From Chloroflexota bacterium (GTDB taxonomy: Bacteria > Chloroflexota > Limnocylindria > QHBO01): a stretch of DNA of 37,970 nt. The position numbers were made by a program, and so were the translations under genes. The notes under the pieces were generated by a model that was not told the DNA's origin, made no database searches, and worked only from the letters and a program-made list of their open reading frames with translations. This document shows positions 30,996-37,470 of this stretch, in pieces; positions within the stretch are counted from its first letter, which is position 1; each line of letters begins with the position of its first letter. The stretch covers positions 1-37,970 of the forward strand of contig JAGXHP010000144.1 of assembly GCA_024636135.1 (NCBI GenBank). The letters are read 5' to 3'.

Positions 30996-32110
30996 GGACG
31001 AGGCCCAGCGCCTGGCGCGCCTCGTGACCGAGACGTCGGTGCGCCTTTGACCACTCCAGCAAAGAGGCCGAGCTCGCCGAGCTGACCGAGCGCTCCGCCG
31101 ATCCCGACCTGTGGGATGACCCCGCCGCGGCGCAGTCGACCATGCGTCGCGCCGAGGAGCTGCGGTCGGAGATCGACCTGTGGCAGTCGCTCGGCGAGCG
31201 TGCCAACGGCCTGGCCGAGATCGCAGAGATGGCGGCGGCCGATCCCGACGAGGCGGAGACCCTGCGGCCCGACCTCGAGCGGGATCTCGCCGCGCTCCAG
31301 GCCGACTGGGCGCGACTCGAGCAGCAGCTCCTCCTGGGCGAGCCGTTCGACGAGCGGGGGGCGATTGTCTCGATCCACGCCGGCGCCGGGGGAACCGAGT
31401 CCCAGGACTGGGCCGAGATGCTCCTGCGCATGTACCTGCGCTGGGCGGAGCGTCACCGCTTCAAGACCGAGATCCTGGAGGCGACCGAGGGCGAGGGCGC
31501 GGGGCTCAAGAGCGTCAGCTTCACCGTCGACGGGCGCTGGGTCTACGGTCAGCTGCGCAGTGAGCGAGGCGTCCATCGGCTCGTGCGGATCAGTCCGTTC
31601 GACTCCCAGAAGCGCCGCCACACGACCTTTGCGCTGGTCGAGATCATGCCGGAGGTCCCCGAGGACGCGGCGGTCGAGATCGACGAGAAGGATCTCCGGG
31701 TCGACACCTACCGCGCCAGCGGGGCCGGTGGCCAGCACGTCAACAAGACCGACTCGGCGGTACGCCTGACGCATGAGCCGACCGGGATCGTCGTCGCCGT
31801 GCAGAGCGAGCGGAGCCAGCATCAGAACCGCGAGCGCGCCATGGCCGTCCTCCGCGCCCGACTCATCGAGCGGCAGGAGGAGGAGCGCGAGGCGGAGATG
31901 GCACGCCTGCGCGGCGAGCACGTCGAGGCTGGCTGGGGCAACCAGATTCGGAGCTACGTCCTCCAGCCGTACACGATGGTGAAGGACCTGCGAACCGGGG
32001 TCGAGACCTCGAATCCGACCGCGGTGCTCGACGGTGAGCTTGATGCCTTCATCGACGGCTACCTTCGCTCCCGCGTCGGCCAGGCCGAGGGCTCGACGCC
32101 GGCCGGATGA
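30982..32110 (+). CDS. prfB: Peptide chain release factor 2, programmed +1 frameshift at CTT-TGA-C (31045-31051)
   Basis: Segment from TTG 30982 (MDTIRDEAQRLARLVTETSVRL) ends CTT TGA C; the +1 frame continues DHSSKEAEL...LWDDP...GAGGTESQDW...LVRISPFD (SPF)...GGQHVN. Confidence 0.95.
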
Positions 32111-32135
32111 ACTCGGCTACCATCGCGCCAAGCCG

Positions 32136-32873
32136 ATGACATCCCTTCTGCGCCGCCGGGCGCGCACCGATTCAGCCGAGGCGTCGGTCATCCGCATGGT
32201 CGATGTCGGCATGACCTACCCGAACGGCAAGGTCGCCCTGGCCGACGTCAGCGTCGAGATCCCGGCGGGCGACTTCGTGTTCCTGGTCGGGCCGTCGGGG
32301 GCCGGCAAGAGCACGTTCATCCGGCTCCTCATCCGCGAGCAGATTCCGACCGCCGGCAGCGTGCGGGTCGCCGGGCGCGAGCTCGTTCGCATGCGGCGAC
32401 GCCACGTCCCGGGGCTGCGCCGCCGGATCGGCATCGTGTTCCAGGACTTCCGGCTTCTGCCGAACAAGACGGTGTGGGAGAACGTCGCCTTCGCGCTCGA
32501 CGTGACCGGCGCGCCCGGGACGTTGGTCCGACAGCGCGTCCCGCAGCTGCTCAGCCTGGTCGGGCTCCAGGATCACGCCCACCACCTGCCGACCCAGCTG
32601 TCCGGCGGAGAACAGCAGCGCACGGCGATCGGGCGGGCCCTGGTCCACGATCCGGCCATCCTCATCGCCGATGAGCCGACGGGCAACCTCGACCCCGTCA
32701 CCAGCTGGGAGATCATCCAGCTCCTGATCCAGATCAACCAGCTCGGCACCACGGTCCTCATGGCGACCCACAACCAGGAGATCGTGAACGCCATGCGCCG
32801 CCGGGTGCTGGCCCTCGAGGGCGGGCACCTCGTGCGCGACGAGGCGGCCGCGGCCTACGAGCGGGAGTACTGA
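32136..32873 (+). CDS. ftsE: Cell division ATP-binding protein FtsE
   Basis: [51 protein letters not shown]. Confidence 0.95.
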
Positions 32874-32877
32874 GCCG

Positions 32878-33771
32878 ATGCCCTTCGCGCGCTTCATCGG
32901 CTTCAGCATCGTCCGCGCCTGGCAGGGCTTCTGGCGCAACGCGATGATGAGCCTGGCCGCCACCGCCACCGTCATCCTGATGCTCGTCCTCCTGTCGGGG
33001 CTGTTCATTGTCATCGCCGGGCTCAACTCCGGCCTCGAGTTCATCGAGAGCAAGGTGGCCGTCACCGCCCAGCTGGTCGACGACCTGCCGGTCGCCGACC
33101 GGATGCAGCTCGTCTCCGAGGTCGAGGCCTTTCCGCAGGTGGCCTCGGTGGCCTACGTCTCACCGGCCGAGGCCATGGAGCGGCTCCGCGCCTCGTATCG
33201 CGAGGCGGGGCAGGAGCTCGACACGGGCGGCGCCACGATCCGGCTGTTCGCCAGCCTGGAGATCAACCTCGTCGACCCGAATGCGGCCGGGGACGTGGGC
33301 GAGTTCCTGGCCTCCCACGACGACGTGGCGCGCGTTCTGACCAAGCAGGCCGAGTACGACACGCTGCTCGGCATCATCAACGTCATCCGGACGGTCGGCC
33401 TGGTCGGCATCGGCCTCGTGGGGCTGACCGTGCTGTTCATGATCATCAACACGATCCGGATCGCGGTCTACAGCCGGGCAGGCGAGATCGAGATCATGCG
33501 GCTGGTCGGCGCATCGGACTCGTTCATCCGCTGGCCGTTCATCCTCGAGGGCGTGCTGTGCGGACTGATCGGCGCGCTCGTGACGATCGTCCTGGTGGCG
33601 ATCGTGTGGGACCCGATCCAGCCGGCGATGGTGACGATCTTCCAGATGCCGACCGCCGTCAGCGCCCGCTTCCTCACCACGCTGTCGATGATCCTGCTCG
33701 GCGCCGGCCTGGGCGTCGGGGCGCTCGGCTCCTGGATCAGCGTGCGGTCCTACCTCTCCGCCGCCCGATGA
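32878..33771 (+). CDS. ftsX: Cell division permease FtsX
   Basis: WRNAMMSLA, INTIRIAVYSRAGEIEIMRLVGASDSFIRWPFILEG, four helices. Confidence 0.95.
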   Translation: MPFARFIGFSIVRAWQGFWRNAMMSLAATATVILMLVLLSGLFIVIAGLNSGLEFIESKVAVTAQLVDDLPVADRMQLVSEVEAFPQVASVAYVSPAEAMERLRASYREAGQELDTGGATIRLFASLEINLVDPNAAGDVGEFLASHDDVARVLTKQAEYDTLLGIINVIRTVGLVGIGLVGLTVLFMIINTIRIAVYSRAGEIEIMRLVGASDSFIRWPFILEGVLCGLIGALVTIVLVAIVWDPIQPAMVTIFQMPTAVSARFLTTLSMILLGAGLGVGALGSWISVRSYLSAAR

Positions 33772-33852
33772 CCCACGGCTCTCGGTGCATAAGGAAACGT
33801 AACCTGCCCGCGATCTCGCCCAACGGGGAGCGACGCTAGACTTCACGCCCCG

Positions 33853-35211
33853 ATGAACGAGCACGTGCCCCCAGCCCCCGCCCCGCGGCGGGGCGGATCG
33901 ATTCCCTGGATCATCTCCATCGCCCTGGCGGCGGTGGTCGGTGCCCTGCTGTTCGCCGGCGGGTTTCTCGCGGGCGGCGGCTCCGAAGCCGGTGGTTGTG
34001 CGGCCCCCGACGATGCCTTCGCCGCGTTCTGCGAGGCCTACGATCAGCTCCAGAACGACTATGTCGATGAGCTCGACCCCGACGCGCTCGTCGAGGGCGC
34101 GATCCGCGGCATGTTCCAGTACGGCGTCGCCGATCCGTACTCCGGCTACATGCCCCCGGAGCAGTATCGCCAGGCGCTCGGCGACCTTTCCGGCGCCTTC
34201 AGCGGCATCGGGGCCGAGATGGCGATCCGCAACACCCGGGATGCCGCGGACCTTGCCGCGTGTACCGAGCTGAGCGACGTCTGCCGCCTGATCGTCGTCG
34301 CGCCGTTGTCGGACTCGCCGGCCGAGCGGGCCGGGCTCCAGACGGGCGACTTCGTCGTGGCCGTGGATGGGACGTCGGTCAACGGCACGACCATGGAGGA
34401 CCAGATCGGCCAGATCCGCGGGGAATCGGGCACCGACGTCACGCTGACGGTCCTGCGCGATGACGGCGAGCCATTCGACATCACGATCACGCGCGCCGAG
34501 ATCACGATCCAGGAGGTCGAAGCACGGATGATCGACGGGCACATCGGCTACATCGGCCTCAACCAGTTCTCGGCGCCGGCCGCCGACCAGTTCCGTGATG
34601 CGCTCGCCGACCTGATCGACGAGGGCGCCGACCAGGTCGTGTTCGACCTCCGCGACAACCCCGGCGGCTACATCGATGCGGCGCAGCAGATCGCCAGCCA
34701 GTTCGTCGACGACGGGCTGATCTTCACGCAGGAGTCGGCCGGCGACGACGTCCGCGAGTGGCCGGCAACCGGCGACGGCGTGGCAACTGATCGCGAGATT
34801 CCGGTCGTGGTGCTCATCAACGGCGGGTCTGCCTCGGCATCCGAGATCGTCGCGGCGGCGCTCCAGGAGAGCGGACGCGCGACCCTCATCGGCGAGCCAT
34901 CATTCGGAAAGAACACGGTACAGGTCTGGAGCCGGCTCGAGAACGAGGGCGGGGTCCGCATCACGATCAGCCGATGGTTCACGCCGCAGCACAACAGCGT
35001 TGCGCCCGACGGGATCCAGCCCGACGTCGACGCGGCACGCACCGCGGAGACGCCGCCGGAGGAGGATCCGGTCCTCGACGCCGCCATCGCCTTCCTCGGC
35101 GATCAATCCGTGGCCGACGATCCCTTGACGCCGAAGCCGTCCGGTTCGCCATCCGCGGGGCTTCCGGGAGCGGTCGTCGTGGGCGTTGTGGGCGCTCGAC
35201 CCATCTGCTAG
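33853..35211 (+). CDS. ctpA: S41A C-terminal processing peptidase with PDZ domain
   Basis: N-terminal membrane helix, DPYSGY, FSGIGA, SPAERAGL, DLRDNPGG, SASASEI (catalytic Ser), FGKNTVQ (catalytic Lys). Confidence 0.93.
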   Translation: MNEHVPPAPAPRRGGSIPWIISIALAAVVGALLFAGGFLAGGGSEAGGCAAPDDAFAAFCEAYDQLQNDYVDELDPDALVEGAIRGMFQYGVADPYSGYMPPEQYRQALGDLSGAFSGIGAEMAIRNTRDAADLAACTELSDVCRLIVVAPLSDSPAERAGLQTGDFVVAVDGTSVNGTTMEDQIGQIRGESGTDVTLTVLRDDGEPFDITITRAEITIQEVEARMIDGHIGYIGLNQFSAPAADQFRDALADLIDEGADQVVFDLRDNPGGYIDAAQQIASQFVDDGLIFTQESAGDDVREWPATGDGVATDREIPVVVLINGGSASASEIVAAALQESGRATLIGEPSFGKNTVQVWSRLENEGGVRITISRWFTPQHNSVAPDGIQPDVDAARTAETPPEEDPVLDAAIAFLGDQSVADDPLTPKPSGSPSAGLPGAVVVGVVGARPIC

Positions 35212-35214
35212 CAT
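35206..35214 (+). promoter_or_regulatory. Extended -10 (TGcTAGCAT) overlapping the ctpA stop codon
   Basis: Same TGn-TANNAT layout as the tmRNA promoter (TGcTAGAAT). Confidence 0.55.
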
Positions 35215-35244
35215 CGCCGGCAACGAAAGGAGGTGGTGTTGCTG

Positions 35245-35286
35245 ATGGATAGTTCCAAGCACGCCACCACCGAGGCAGTGGCCTAA
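35245..35286 (+). CDS. Micro-ORF MDSSKHATTEAVA (in-frame TTG at 35239 would add 2 aa)
   Basis: Perfect SD AAAGGAGGTG at 35226-35235, in-frame run GTG TTG CTG ATG, TAA stop, hairpin downstream. Confidence 0.55.
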   Translation: MDSSKHATTEAVA

Positions 35287-35310
35287 CACAGCTTCGCGTG
35301 GTGTAGCGAC

Positions 35311-35343
35311 GGAGGAGCCGGCCGAATGCGGCCGGCTCTCTCC
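35311..35343 (+). terminator. Strong hairpin upstream of smpB
   Basis: GGAG-GAGCCGGCCG-AATG-CGGCCGGCTC-T-CTCC: perfect 10-bp stem with a 4-bp extension; no long U-tract. Confidence 0.6.
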
Positions 35344-35384
35344 ATGTCCGCCCCGATCGAACCCGCACGCTGAGCCCAGGACCG

Positions 35385-35849
35385 ATGCCCGACGAGACGA
35401 TCGCCGTCAACCGACGCGCCCGCCATGACTACACCATCGAGGACACCCTCGAGGCTGGCCTCGTGCTGACCGGGACCGAGATCAAGAGCATCCGCGAGCA
35501 CAAGGTGAACATCGCCGAGGCCTATGCCAGGGTCGACAAGGGCGAGGCCTGGCTGATCGGCGCCCACATCGCGGAGTACTCGCAGGGCAACCGCAACAAC
35601 CACGCTCCGACGCGCACGCGCAAGCTGCTGCTGCATCGCGACCAGATCGCCGAGCTCACCGGGCTGCAGTCGGCAAAGGGACTCACGATCGTCCCGCTGC
35701 GGCTCTACATCAGCCGCGGACGGGCGAAGCTCGAGCTCGGGATCGCCAAGGGCAAGAAGACCCACGACAAGCGCCGATCCATCGCCGAGCGCGACATGCG
35801 CCGCGAGCTCGATCGCGAGTCGAAGCAGGCCGGGCGCATCAAGCTCTAG
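35385..35849 (+). CDS. smpB: SsrA-binding protein SmpB
   Basis: NRRARHDYTIEDTLEAGLVLTGTEIKSIR, RTRKLLLH, GLTIVPLRLY, GKKTHDKR. Confidence 0.98.
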   Translation: MPDETIAVNRRARHDYTIEDTLEAGLVLTGTEIKSIREHKVNIAEAYARVDKGEAWLIGAHIAEYSQGNRNNHAPTRTRKLLLHRDQIAELTGLQSAKGLTIVPLRLYISRGRAKLELGIAKGKKTHDKRRSIAERDMRRELDRESKQAGRIKL

Positions 35850-35913
35850 GTCCTGGCGGGTCGCTTCGTCGATCGCTTGCACCCGTGGACGCACCCACGT
35901 CCCCTGCAGCTCT

Positions 35914-35927
35914 AGAACAGGTGTTCT
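35914..35927. promoter_or_regulatory. Putative LexA (SOS) box AGAAC-AGGT-GTTCT
   Basis: Matches GAAC-N4-GTTC, the operator type of Firmicutes, Actinobacteria and Chloroflexi; overlaps the predicted ssrA -35. Confidence 0.65.
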
Positions 35928-35952
35928 CATCGGCGCGTCGGTCTGCTAGAAT
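35924..35952 (+). promoter_or_regulatory. ssrA promoter
   Basis: TTCTCA, 17 nt, TAGAAT with a TG extension, 20 nt upstream of the mature tmRNA 5' end. Confidence 0.7.
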
Positions 35953-35972
35953 GGGCAGTCCAATCGGCTCGT

Positions 35973-36335
35973 GGGGATGTCAGGATTCGACAGTGCCCAG
36001 GAACCGAGAATCGCAGGTCGAGGTTGCTCGCAGGCCTCGTTAAACAGCGGGCAATTGCTGTAACTGGCAACGATAGTTACGCCTTCGCTGCTTAGGCAGT
36101 GAACATCGACGCCGTCCCCCCTCCCCGGGCGGCGAAGATGTCATTAGGGGAGGTGCGGCGTCGCCGACTCCGGTGAGTGGCGTCAAAGAGCCGAAAGGCA
36201 TCACCGGATAGCAGGCGAAGCACCCCGCCGGTCGGGGGCCCGCATTGCGAAGCGCAAGTTGGCCGGAAATACCTGTAGGAAGTTCTCGGCGACTGTGTTC
36301 TGGACGGGGAGTTCGATTCTCCCCCATCTCCACCA
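35973..36335 (+). ncRNA. ssrA: tmRNA, tag (A)GNDSYAFAA
   Basis: 5' GGGGATG..GGATTCGAC pairs with 3' CATCTCC-ACCA (G3-U), TTCGATT T-loop, resume context TAACT-GGC, tag ORF 36066-36095 ending GCT GCT TAG; next to smpB. Confidence 0.97.
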
Positions 36336-36467
36336 CTTCACCCTCGGCGGCCGCTCCGCGCCGGACTCGGCGCTGCGTCAAGCGGACCCGAGCGAGTTGA
36401 CCCGCTGTGCTACGGTCCGTCGCGGGTCGGGGGGCCCTTTTGGTCGACATGGAGGGTGTTGGATCGG

Positions 36468-37040
36468 ATGGACTTCTCGAAATTGAGCCAGACCGAAAAA
36501 CTGGCCGTCTACGGATCCGCGGCGGTCATCATCGGCGGTCTGGTGGGATACAGCTACGGACTCACCGTGCTCGCTGTGCTCGCCGCAGTCGCGATGCTCG
36601 TCATCGTCCTGCTGCCGCAGCTGTCGCCGGGCACCACCTTGCCGGGCTCCCGAGGCAGCCTGATGGTCGCCGCCGGTGGCGTGGCCGGCGTGACGATGCT
36701 GCTGGCCCTGCTCGTCGGCATCGGGCTGGTGTTCGTCAACTTCAACGTTCGCGACCTGTTCTTCCTGATCGCCGTGGTGGGCGCCGCCGTGATGGCGTGG
36801 GCTGGCTGGCAAGAGTTCCAGGCCGAGGGCGGCAAGTTCAAGGTCGGAACCTCATCGGCCTCCGAGCGGCCGGCCGCGTCCCCAGCTCCCGCGGCTACCG
36901 CAGCCGAGCCGGTAGCGGCCGAGCCGGTTGCGAGCGAGCCGGTCGCCTCCGAGCCGGTCGCGGCCGAGCCGGTAGCCGCCGAGCCCGCTGCCGCCGAGCC
37001 GGCGGCCGAGCCCACGGACGACGATCGCCCGGTCGGCTAG
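36468..37040 (+). CDS. Membrane protein with an acidic Pro/Ala repeat tail
   Basis: MDFSKLSQTEKL then about four hydrophobic helices and AWAGWQEFQAEGG; GGAGG SD. Confidence 0.8.
   Translation: MDFSKLSQTEKLAVYGSAAVIIGGLVGYSYGLTVLAVLAAVAMLVIVLLPQLSPGTTLPGSRGSLMVAAGGVAGVTMLLALLVGIGLVFVNFNVRDLFFLIAVVGAAVMAWAGWQEFQAEGGKFKVGTSSASERPAASPAPAATAAEPVAAEPVASEPVASEPVAAEPVAAEPAAAEPAAEPTDDDRPVG
36903..37013 (+). repeat. 15-bp coding tandem repeat, about 7 copies (EPVAA/EPVAS)
   Basis: GAGCCS recurs at 36906, 36921, 36936, 36951, 36966, 36981 and 36996 with synonymous variation. Confidence 0.9.
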
Positions 37041-37044
37041 AGGA

Positions 37045-37470
37045 TCAGTCCTCGGCCAGCAGCTCTCCGACGCGGCCGCGAATCATCGCGGTCGCGTCAC
37101 GTCCTTCCCCCAGCGCGCGCCCGATGCGCGTGATCGTCACGTCCGCGGCAAGACCGTCATCGACGGCATCCACCGCCTCGGCAAGGAGGCGTCGGCGGGC
37201 TGCGTCCGTCTCGTGCTCGGCGACATGGCGGACGAGTGAGCCGATGTCACCCAGCGTCGCGGCCAGCTCCTCTGGCGGCGGTTCGAGCGCCTCCTCGAAA
37301 TAGAGAATCGCAAGCGCCAGTAACTCACCCGCACCGGCGTCCGAGCGGACCCCGGTGCGCTCATCGACTCCGATGACGAGGGCGTACCCGTCGTCCAGCG
37401 TCGGCGCGAACCCCACCCACGGGCCGTCGGGCTCCAGGCGCCCGACGGCGCACGCTGCGCCTTCCATCAC
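37045..37470 (-). CDS. Hypothetical protein
   Basis: 141-aa ORF filling the gap downstream of jag, GGAG SD, protein-like composition; no family recognised. Confidence 0.65.
   Translation of the reverse strand: MMEGAACAVGRLEPDGPWVGFAPTLDDGYALVIGVDERTGVRSDAGAGELLALAILYFEEALEPPPEELAATLGDIGSLVRHVAEHETDAARRRLLAEAVDAVDDGLAADVTITRIGRALGEGRDATAMIRGRVGELLAED

Follow-up and report, generated by a model that had tools for sequence, protein, structure and literature searches.

A candidate self-masking micro-cistron between ctpA and smpB in Candidatus Limnocylindria, a member of an undescribed RNA family widespread in Chloroflexota

The 173-nucleotide (nt) gap between ctpA and smpB in contig JAGXHP010000144.1 of a Chloroflexota bacterium (assembly GCA_024636135.1; the whole analysed stretch of 37,970 nt is called the window below) holds a micro-gene. 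This element is part of a family, hitherto undescribed, of which almost every genome of the class Candidatus Limnocylindria has one copy and which is widespread in the phylum Chloroflexota; its members have a common anatomy of promoter, invariant Shine-Dalgarno (SD) run, ATG or GTG start, open frame, hairpins and terminator. We lean towards reading the stretch 35186-35354 as a free-standing transcription unit carrying a translated, self-masking micro-cistron, in which a strand inside the open reading frame (ORF) would pair with the element's own SD. A first-pass annotation of the DNA, made from its letters, had proposed promoter boxes, an SD, the ORF MDSSKHATTEAVA and a GC hairpin in this gap, and all of them are present in the window at the places collected in Table 1. 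The order of genes over 32034-36335 is ftsE-ftsX-ctpA-(micro-gene)-smpB-ssrA.

The spacer was found by BLASTN in 23 of the 24 other genomes of the genus. When 20 same-genus genomes were aligned, the segment from the -10 box to the hairpin (35205-35345) was nearly invariant, and the ctpA tail, the spacer between hairpin and smpB and the third codon positions of smpB were all variable in the same genomes. An invariant element amid variable flanks points to a constraint on the RNA itself. Two covariance models were used for wider searches, one built from the genus (R1) and one from 36 class-wide sequences (R2). With R1, 94 of the 151 class genomes each gave a single full-length match, and R2 matched 145 of the 151, including 109 of the 110 high-quality genomes; by family, the R2 matches numbered 49/50 (f1), 44/49 (f2), 44/44 (f3), 6/6 (f4) and 1/1 (f5). 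With these models the element was single-copy in each genome. Across the phylum, R2 matched 63 of 151 sampled Chloroflexota genomes, and the full anatomy was present in 36 of the 40 matches that were fetched. The phylum matches L178 (tRNA-like), L179, L188 and L202 (without the motif) were rejected as false positives. No genuine copy was found with R2 in samples of 121 Actinomycetota and 121 Bacillota genomes, where weak matches (five in Actinomycetota, one in Bacillota) were coding regions, a T-box-like leader or terminator-only matches. The tallies take in genomes flagged as unpublished (G118, G144, G109, G113, G089, G128 and G205), and the aligned sequences include loci L033 and L022; no claim depends on these by themselves.

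No known family accounted for the element. At the gathering score, comparison of the window with the 4227 models of Rfam 15 returned the transfer-messenger RNA (tmRNA) and nothing on the element, and a permissive scan gave best E values of 0.12-0.22 at 16-17 bits, compared with thresholds of 70-75. The weak matches concerned (Bp2_287, CC2171, RcsR1 and Thr_leader) were dismissed as noise, being far under threshold and driven by the SD plus hairpin. Among 15 homologous loci, none had an Rfam match on the element. The 13-residue peptide of the window is too short for the hidden Markov model tool, and five homologous peptides of 23-24 residues were used instead; at E up to 10, none of them matched a Pfam or NCBIfam family. 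A full-text literature search (supplements excluded) found no paper describing the element or an smpB leader ORF. The first-pass annotation had likewise recognised no described family here, and the Rfam, Pfam and NCBIfam searches agree with it. Chloroflexi-1 (RF01698), which Table 1 of PMC2864571 gives for Chloroflexus aggregans, resembles the element in being a candidate structured RNA from a Chloroflexota organism, but it is a separate Rfam family that the element does not match.

Table 1. Features of the ctpA-smpB region in the window (coordinates of the whole stretch).
Feature	Position	Strand	Remarks
ctpA (S41 peptidase with PDZ)	33853..35211	+	gene 5' of the element; stop TAG at 35209-35211
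-35 box TTGTGG	35186..35191	+	within the 3' end of ctpA; 17 nt 5' of the -10 box
Extended -10 box TGcTAGCAT	35206..35214	+	invariant in 20/20 same-genus loci; its TAG is the ctpA stop codon
Predicted RNA 5' end	35221 (+/- 2 nt)	+	placed by spacing to the -10 box
SD GAAAGGAGGUGGU	35225..35237	+	13 bases complementary (one G-U) to the 16S rRNA 3' end
Micro-ORF ATG...TAA, MDSSKHATTEAVA	35245..35286	+	13 codons; TAA at 35284-35286
Strand b, anti-SD GCCACCACC	35262..35271	+	ORF codons 7-9; pairs with the SD as helix P1
Second SD-like box CGAGGCAGUGG	35271..35281	+	few bases 5' of the stop
Hairpin P2	35272..35295	+	stop codon in the loop; predicted fold
Strand c GCUUCGCGUGGUG	35291..35303	+	pairs with b plus GAGGC as extended P2, which excludes P1
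GC-rich terminator-like hairpin	35311..35343	+	without a clean U-tract
Tail AUGUCCGCCCC	35344..35354	+	conserved in 18/20 same-genus loci
smpB	35385..35849	+	Pfam SmpB 1e-59; probably transcribed through the hairpin

The unit appears to have its own start and end. Its -35 box was kept as TTGTSG in 20 of 20 same-genus loci, although the surrounding ctpA tail is variable, and TAnnnT stood at the same position as the -10 box in other families of the element. The motif TTGNNN-N16-18-TANNNT was present 5' of the SD in 68 of 68 loci, and by its letters the promoter reads as sigma-70-type or sigma-70-like. At the other end lies the terminal GC hairpin, giving a predicted RNA of about 125 nt. The RNA 35221-35348 had a minimum free energy (MFE) of -67.5 kcal/mol, compared with -44.4 ± 3.7 kcal/mol for 200 shuffles (z = -6.2). 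The earlier description, a self-contained micro-gene equipped with its promoter, SD, short ORF and hairpin, is borne out.

Parts of 34700-36400 occur in 23 public sequencing runs, and four metatranscriptomes from four studies were compared as contigs, whose depths cannot rank expression. Over positions 35213-35326, depth was 57-59 in X2 and 14-17 in X10, higher than at the adjoining ctpA end and spacer. One X10 contig (record 2) begins exactly at 35221, and two X2 contigs join the element to the 5' end of smpB across a divergent hairpin. These contigs hint, weakly, at transcription that begins near 35221 and continues into smpB. The contigs of X9 and X12 give no cover of the element and are uninformative. 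The RNA libraries were dominated by tmRNA, with depths of 1e4-1e5.

The most constant part of the element in the phylum is its SD. The window letters at 35225-35237 are GAAAGGAGGTGGT, with AAAGGAGGTG at 35226-35235, and the run that is invariant across the phylum is AAAGGAGGUG(A/G)U. In the window genome and its relatives the 16S rRNA ends in ...GGAUCACCUCCUUUCUAGGGAG, so that the element offers 13 complementary bases to it. Each Limnocylindria genome has only 2-3 occurrences of the SD 13-mer. In the genomes examined for this, one lay at the mapped 16S 3' end (antisense strand) and another was the element, whose SD was the longest such 16S match.

A second, SD-like signal was found at the other end of the frame. 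Over 165 unique elements, 9-nt windows ending 1-8 nt 5' of the stop had mean energies of -6 to -7.5 kcal/mol with the 16S end, those ending more than 11 nt upstream of the stop scored about 0, and the best pre-stop window reached -6 or better in 87% of elements. The second box of the window itself is weak (-5.9), and many relatives in several lineages carry the full GGAGGUGA (-15). Comparable boxes are known at prfB and dnaX and in translational coupling, where they influence ribosomes during elongation or termination and where an SD-like sequence likewise stands 5-11 nt 5' of the pause or termination codon; unlike these cases, the element has no slippery site, overlapping restart codon or stop-codon preference. 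In locus L216 the stop is shifted and is a UGA inside the SD-like box.

Between the two boxes lies the micro-ORF. Its start codon in the window is 11 nt past the GGAGG core, and all 139 unique elements had exactly one ATG or GTG 8-11 nt past GGAGG that opened a frame of 13-31 codons. The 101 unique ORFs of family f1 started with ATG (43) or GTG (58) and stopped with TAA (66), TGA (13) or TAG (22), never showing a sense codon at that place. The U and G of the start codon were invariant, though unpaired in 107 and 118 of the 139 elements, respectively. The first-pass annotation had noted in-frame GTG, TTG, CTG and ATG codons, and the window has GTG, GTG, TTG, CTG and ATG in frame at 35233-35247, but the upstream ones are not conserved: insertions or deletions (indels) of 1-2 nt between SD and start put the upstream GTG, TTG and CTG out of frame in relatives, which leaves the ATG at 35245 as the start.

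The length of the ORF shifted by whole codons, unlike that of the post-stop or SD-to-start segments. For families f3 and f4 (22 unique elements), the distance from start to strand b was 18, 21 or 24 nt and that from b to the stop 21, 24 or 27 nt; the untranslated distance from stop to strand c was 6-17 nt, with residues modulo 3 spread 8/7/7. In lineages with hairpins inserted within the ORF the frame was still open, over 19-31 codons. Judged by these patterns, the micro-ORF is probably translated, and selection appears to act on frame, start and stop and not on amino acids.

A rival account, one form of which (a ribosome-binding small RNA) the first-pass annotation had already offered, would make the element an untranslated small RNA (sRNA) acting in trans, which binds the 16S 3' end of 30S subunits or masks the SDs of targets, the ORF being a structural by-product. 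The promoter and terminator-like end of the unit would suit such an RNA, and so would conservation at the nucleotide level: in f1, codons 7-10 were invariant at every base, and codons 5 (K/T/R/L/C/M/S) and 13 (A/R/H/Q/N/K/S) were variable at all three positions. The letters of the conserved His-Cys mirror, by reverse complement, the apical-stem GCA together with the start codon, and two members of family f17 read the same strand-b (anti-SD) bases in different frames. What such an sRNA would not predict is an ATG or GTG at SD-appropriate spacing in every one of the 139 elements, with a U and G that are mostly unpaired yet invariant, or a stop that is never lost and alternates only between the three stop codons, or codon-step indels inside the frame only. 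We regard an untranslated RNA as unlikely.

The two folds that give the micro-cistron its self-masking character had also been proposed in the first-pass annotation, and the comparison of 139 elements showed that their competition is real and conserved. GGAGG was inside the best SD:ORF duplex (P1) in 139 of 139 elements, and the mean P1 energy was -21.9 kcal/mol, compared with -14.2 kcal/mol for shuffles. The corresponding values for P2 (b:c) were -33.3 and -22.7 kcal/mol. P1 beat the shuffles by at least 5 kcal/mol in 117 of the 139 elements and P2 in 127, and the b strands of P1 and P2 overlapped by at least 12 nt in 133. At P1 helix positions 10-14, beyond the invariant SD, several standard pair types occurred between lineages. 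The terminated RNA 35221-35346 favoured P1, with a probability of 0.79 that the SD is paired to b. When the RNA was extended to 35356, the MFE fold was extended P2 plus a pairing of the SD with the tail bases CCGCCCC (35348-35354), a pairing that would arise in read-through RNA. Locus L033 carries CUCCUCCUUUCC, near-identical to the 16S 3' end, just 5' of smpB, and the predicted fold has this run paired with the element SD; the run is not kept in other genera.

Ribosomes were represented in the fold predictions as masks (the hairpin boundaries used here, and in the leader:3'-arm pairing and U-tract counts below, were found by script and are approximate). Under an initiating-ribosome mask extended P2 formed, and under a stop-codon mask P1 re-formed behind the ribosome. 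In the mechanism that we propose, the SD and start would be locked in P1 by the ORF-internal anti-SD strand b, and b could pair alternatively with the G-rich strand c past the stop, which would form extended P2 and free the SD. A loading ribosome would have to unwind b and would then terminate in the P2 loop, with the second SD-like box at SD-to-codon distance from the stop. P1 would re-form behind the terminating ribosome, and from the masked folds we infer that only about one ribosome may load at a time. In Limnocylindria the element may couple the synthesis of SmpB to the loading of ribosomes onto the micro-ORF. A more far-reaching version would be a phylum-wide 'ribosome turnstile', a two-SD micro-cistron whose anti-SD toggles between the SD and a decoy, is reset by each ribosome, reports the pool of initiation-competent 30S subunits and was recruited as the smpB leader of Limnocylindria. 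This version is speculative, and we consider it doubtful; if it were true, the supply of a ribosome-rescue factor would be tied to ribosome loading, a control not described for trans-translation.

Systems with similar architecture are known. In translational attenuators of the erm/cat type, a leader ORF is combined with alternative hairpins by which an SD is masked. They share with the element a short leader ORF with a strong SD, mutually exclusive anti-SD helices and a fold decided by ribosome position. They differ in that the SD of the downstream gene is masked, whereas the element masks its own SD and smpB is mostly without one; the element also lacks a conserved arrest motif, ends in a terminator or terminator-like hairpin and often stands alone. 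Type I toxin mRNAs such as hok and tisB sequester the SD in their 5' region. Like the element, they lock the SD by an internal complementary strand and require refolding for translation, but the peptide of the element is short and hydrophilic, and the element is single-copy, phylum-wide and not mobile.

The peptide sequence itself is probably not the point of the element, judging from its variation. If the 13-residue peptide were the functional product, one example would be the free tag mimic suggested in the first-pass annotation, which would compete at the PDZ domain of CtpA or at ClpXP. In favour of a functional peptide, the gene adjoins ctpA, smpB and ssrA, A, V or L is the C-terminal residue of many peptides in other families, and members of different classes repeatedly show xDSS at the N-terminus and a TEV-like motif. 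However, the last residue of the 101 unique f1 ORFs was mostly R (64), followed by A (18), H (11), N (3), K (3), Q (1) and S (1), and in other families it was V, A, L, S, R, F, C or H. The conserved non-polar -(L/F)AA C-terminus of an SsrA-tag-like degron was not found in the f1 ORFs, and with a variable C-terminal residue the SsrA-like ending is not conserved and the tag-mimic idea fails. Conservation was again at the nucleotide level. Residues that recur fall on bases that are paired or SD-like (Thr-Thr on the anti-SD, Thr-Glu-Val on the SD-like GAGGUG), and the f1 ORFs contained no conserved peptide motif independent of RNA pairing. The link with ctpA is absent in f2 and outside the class, and the 23-24-residue homologues, as described above, belong to no Pfam or NCBIfam family. 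We consider the peptide very improbable as the functional product.

The tag of the local tmRNA (35973-36335; Rfam, 139 bits) does read ...GNDSYAFAA*, as had been stated, but the 'DS' and short words that it shares with the element are at chance level. A similarity of the element to the tag region, consisting of a shared 8-mer and 7-mer, was dropped, since about 0.8 and 3 such words are expected by chance by our own estimate for a 140-nt and a 363-nt sequence; the shared bases are not kept in relatives.

Dual-function sRNAs (SgrS/SgrT, RNAIII/hld, SR1/SR1P) resemble the element: each is a small RNA transcribed independently, ends in a terminator and contains a very short ORF. A promoter motif and a terminal hairpin of its own, as in these sRNAs, were found for the element, with U-tract terminators outside Limnocylindria; unlike their peptides, that of the element is apparently not under amino-acid selection.

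Within the class, the element is tied to smpB. It stood directly 5' of smpB in 38 of 38 class loci found with the RNA model and in a further 8 of 8 loci of families f2 and f5, and smpB started 40-150 nt past the hairpin in Limnocylindria. The gene 5' of the element was ctpA in 37 of the 38 class loci, but not in family f2. A promoter-like motif between hairpin and smpB was found in none of 68 spacers, and smpB had no GGAG or GAGG before its start in 59 of 68 loci, and no AGGA either in 50 of the 68 (loci L071-L140). With no promoter-like motif and usually no SD at smpB, the smpB transcript of Limnocylindria probably has the element as its promoter-proximal leader, and smpB would most simply be transcribed through the hairpin, from the promoter of the element or that of ctpA.

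The hairpin itself is well supported. In 36 class-wide sequences, compensatory changes were found in 8 of its 12 pairs with 97% of cells paired, which none of 500 shuffles reached. Its tail in the window is U-poor, and it was not listed by a terminator scan. At least 5 U in an 8-nt window at the hairpin end were present in 23 of 123 Limnocylindria elements, compared with 27 of 36 elsewhere, which suggests that the terminal hairpin of Limnocylindria has mostly lost its U-tract.

Outside the class the neighbours differ. No SmpB, CtpA or FtsEX was found within 1.2 kb of 20 loci outside Limnocylindria, and a phylum-wide link with smpB was rejected. The genes 3' of the element in the same orientation were birA (six loci), greA (two loci) and moeA, and in family f27 the neighbouring gene is convergent to the element. 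These differing neighbours indicate that the smpB link is a class-level acquisition and not the defining context of the family. The earlier suggestion of a leader controlling smpB thus holds for position, the element being always 5' of smpB in the class with no promoter-like motif in the spacer, but not as a general description of the family, which has other neighbours elsewhere and no antiterminator that we could find. In two f17 loci (L173 and L175) greA starts 38-66 nt past a U-tract terminator, with the greA SD directly after the U-run; with no room for a promoter before it, greA seems to depend on read-through.

The position before smpB raises the question of a sensing attenuator, in which a leader ribosome stalled by starvation or an antibiotic would switch the terminator to an antiterminator. 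The order of promoter, short ORF, hairpin and gene throughout the class, and the place of greA past the f17 terminator, are what such a device would look like. However, the ORF carries no string of regulatory codons and its peptide is variable; the one fixed codon pair in f1 is ACC ACC, which lies in paired RNA, and other lineages are different. The f27 element, moreover, faces a convergent gene, and the hairpin core stayed in place under all ribosome masks, with antiterminator pairing no better than in controls. We consider a sensing attenuator distinctly unlikely. The trp, thr and his attenuators, including the free Sinorhizobium attenuator RNA rnTrpL with its 14-residue peptide peTrpL (PMC6614838, PMC7298713), share with the element the succession of promoter, ORF of about 14 codons, terminator and gene. 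With rnTrpL the small terminated RNA can itself be a product, as the element may be. The element differs from the trp, thr and his attenuators in having no regulatory codon runs, no antiterminator that was found and a downstream gene that depends on the lineage.

Several observations weigh against reading the element as a translated, self-masking micro-cistron. The sequences compared are related, so the counts overstate independence. In the RNA libraries the depth of the element was thousands-fold under that of tmRNA, and the RNA support consists of contigs, for which DNA carry-over is possible. An ORF of at least 10 codons was present in another frame in 29 of the 139 elements, and a G+C content of 64% makes open frames easy to keep. 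Loci L173 (f17) and L216 (f2) bear indels that shift the frame and displace the stop, which shows that the frame can be broken; these indels could be assembly errors or relaxed constraint. Third codon positions in f1 were no freer than the others, which fits an untranslated structured RNA equally well. Antitermination, which was sought with the ribosome-mask folds, was not found, the hairpin core persisting under every mask, and pairing of the 5' leader with the 3' arm of the hairpin (-14.9) was no better than in reversed (-17.5) or cross-paired (-14.8) controls. An antiterminator formed by this leader:3'-arm pairing, appealing by eye in f3 and f4, was rejected on this comparison, and the folds yielded no RNA mechanism by which read-through would be regulated. 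Finally, the downstream genes vary outside Limnocylindria.

If the micro-cistron is upheld, it would define a new and easily recognised RNA/micro-ORF family in a large, mostly uncultured phylum. Once-per-genome conservation of such a level usually goes with a housekeeping or global regulatory role. The element would also offer a natural system for SD self-masking, for pre-stop SD-like boxes and for the expression of smpB without a promoter or SD of its own, and it illustrates how ORFs of 13-31 codons, invisible to gene callers, can be traced across a phylum via RNA structure.

Some minor observations concern the surroundings of the element and of smpB. ARAGORN reported no tmRNA in the window, despite the full-length Rfam tmRNA match with a plausible tag. 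The 298-codon ORF 3' of the tmRNA (36407-37303) had no Pfam match at E <= 0.001. A promoter-like site of its own, TTCTCA-17-TAGAAT with TG upstream, stands before ssrA at 35924-35952. In three records of Bacillota metagenome-assembled genomes (L141, L142 and L144), a consensus-like promoter followed by a conserved U-run hairpin lies about 60-150 nt 5' of smpB, which suggests an smpB leader or terminator in some Clostridia-like genomes that is unrelated to the element described here.

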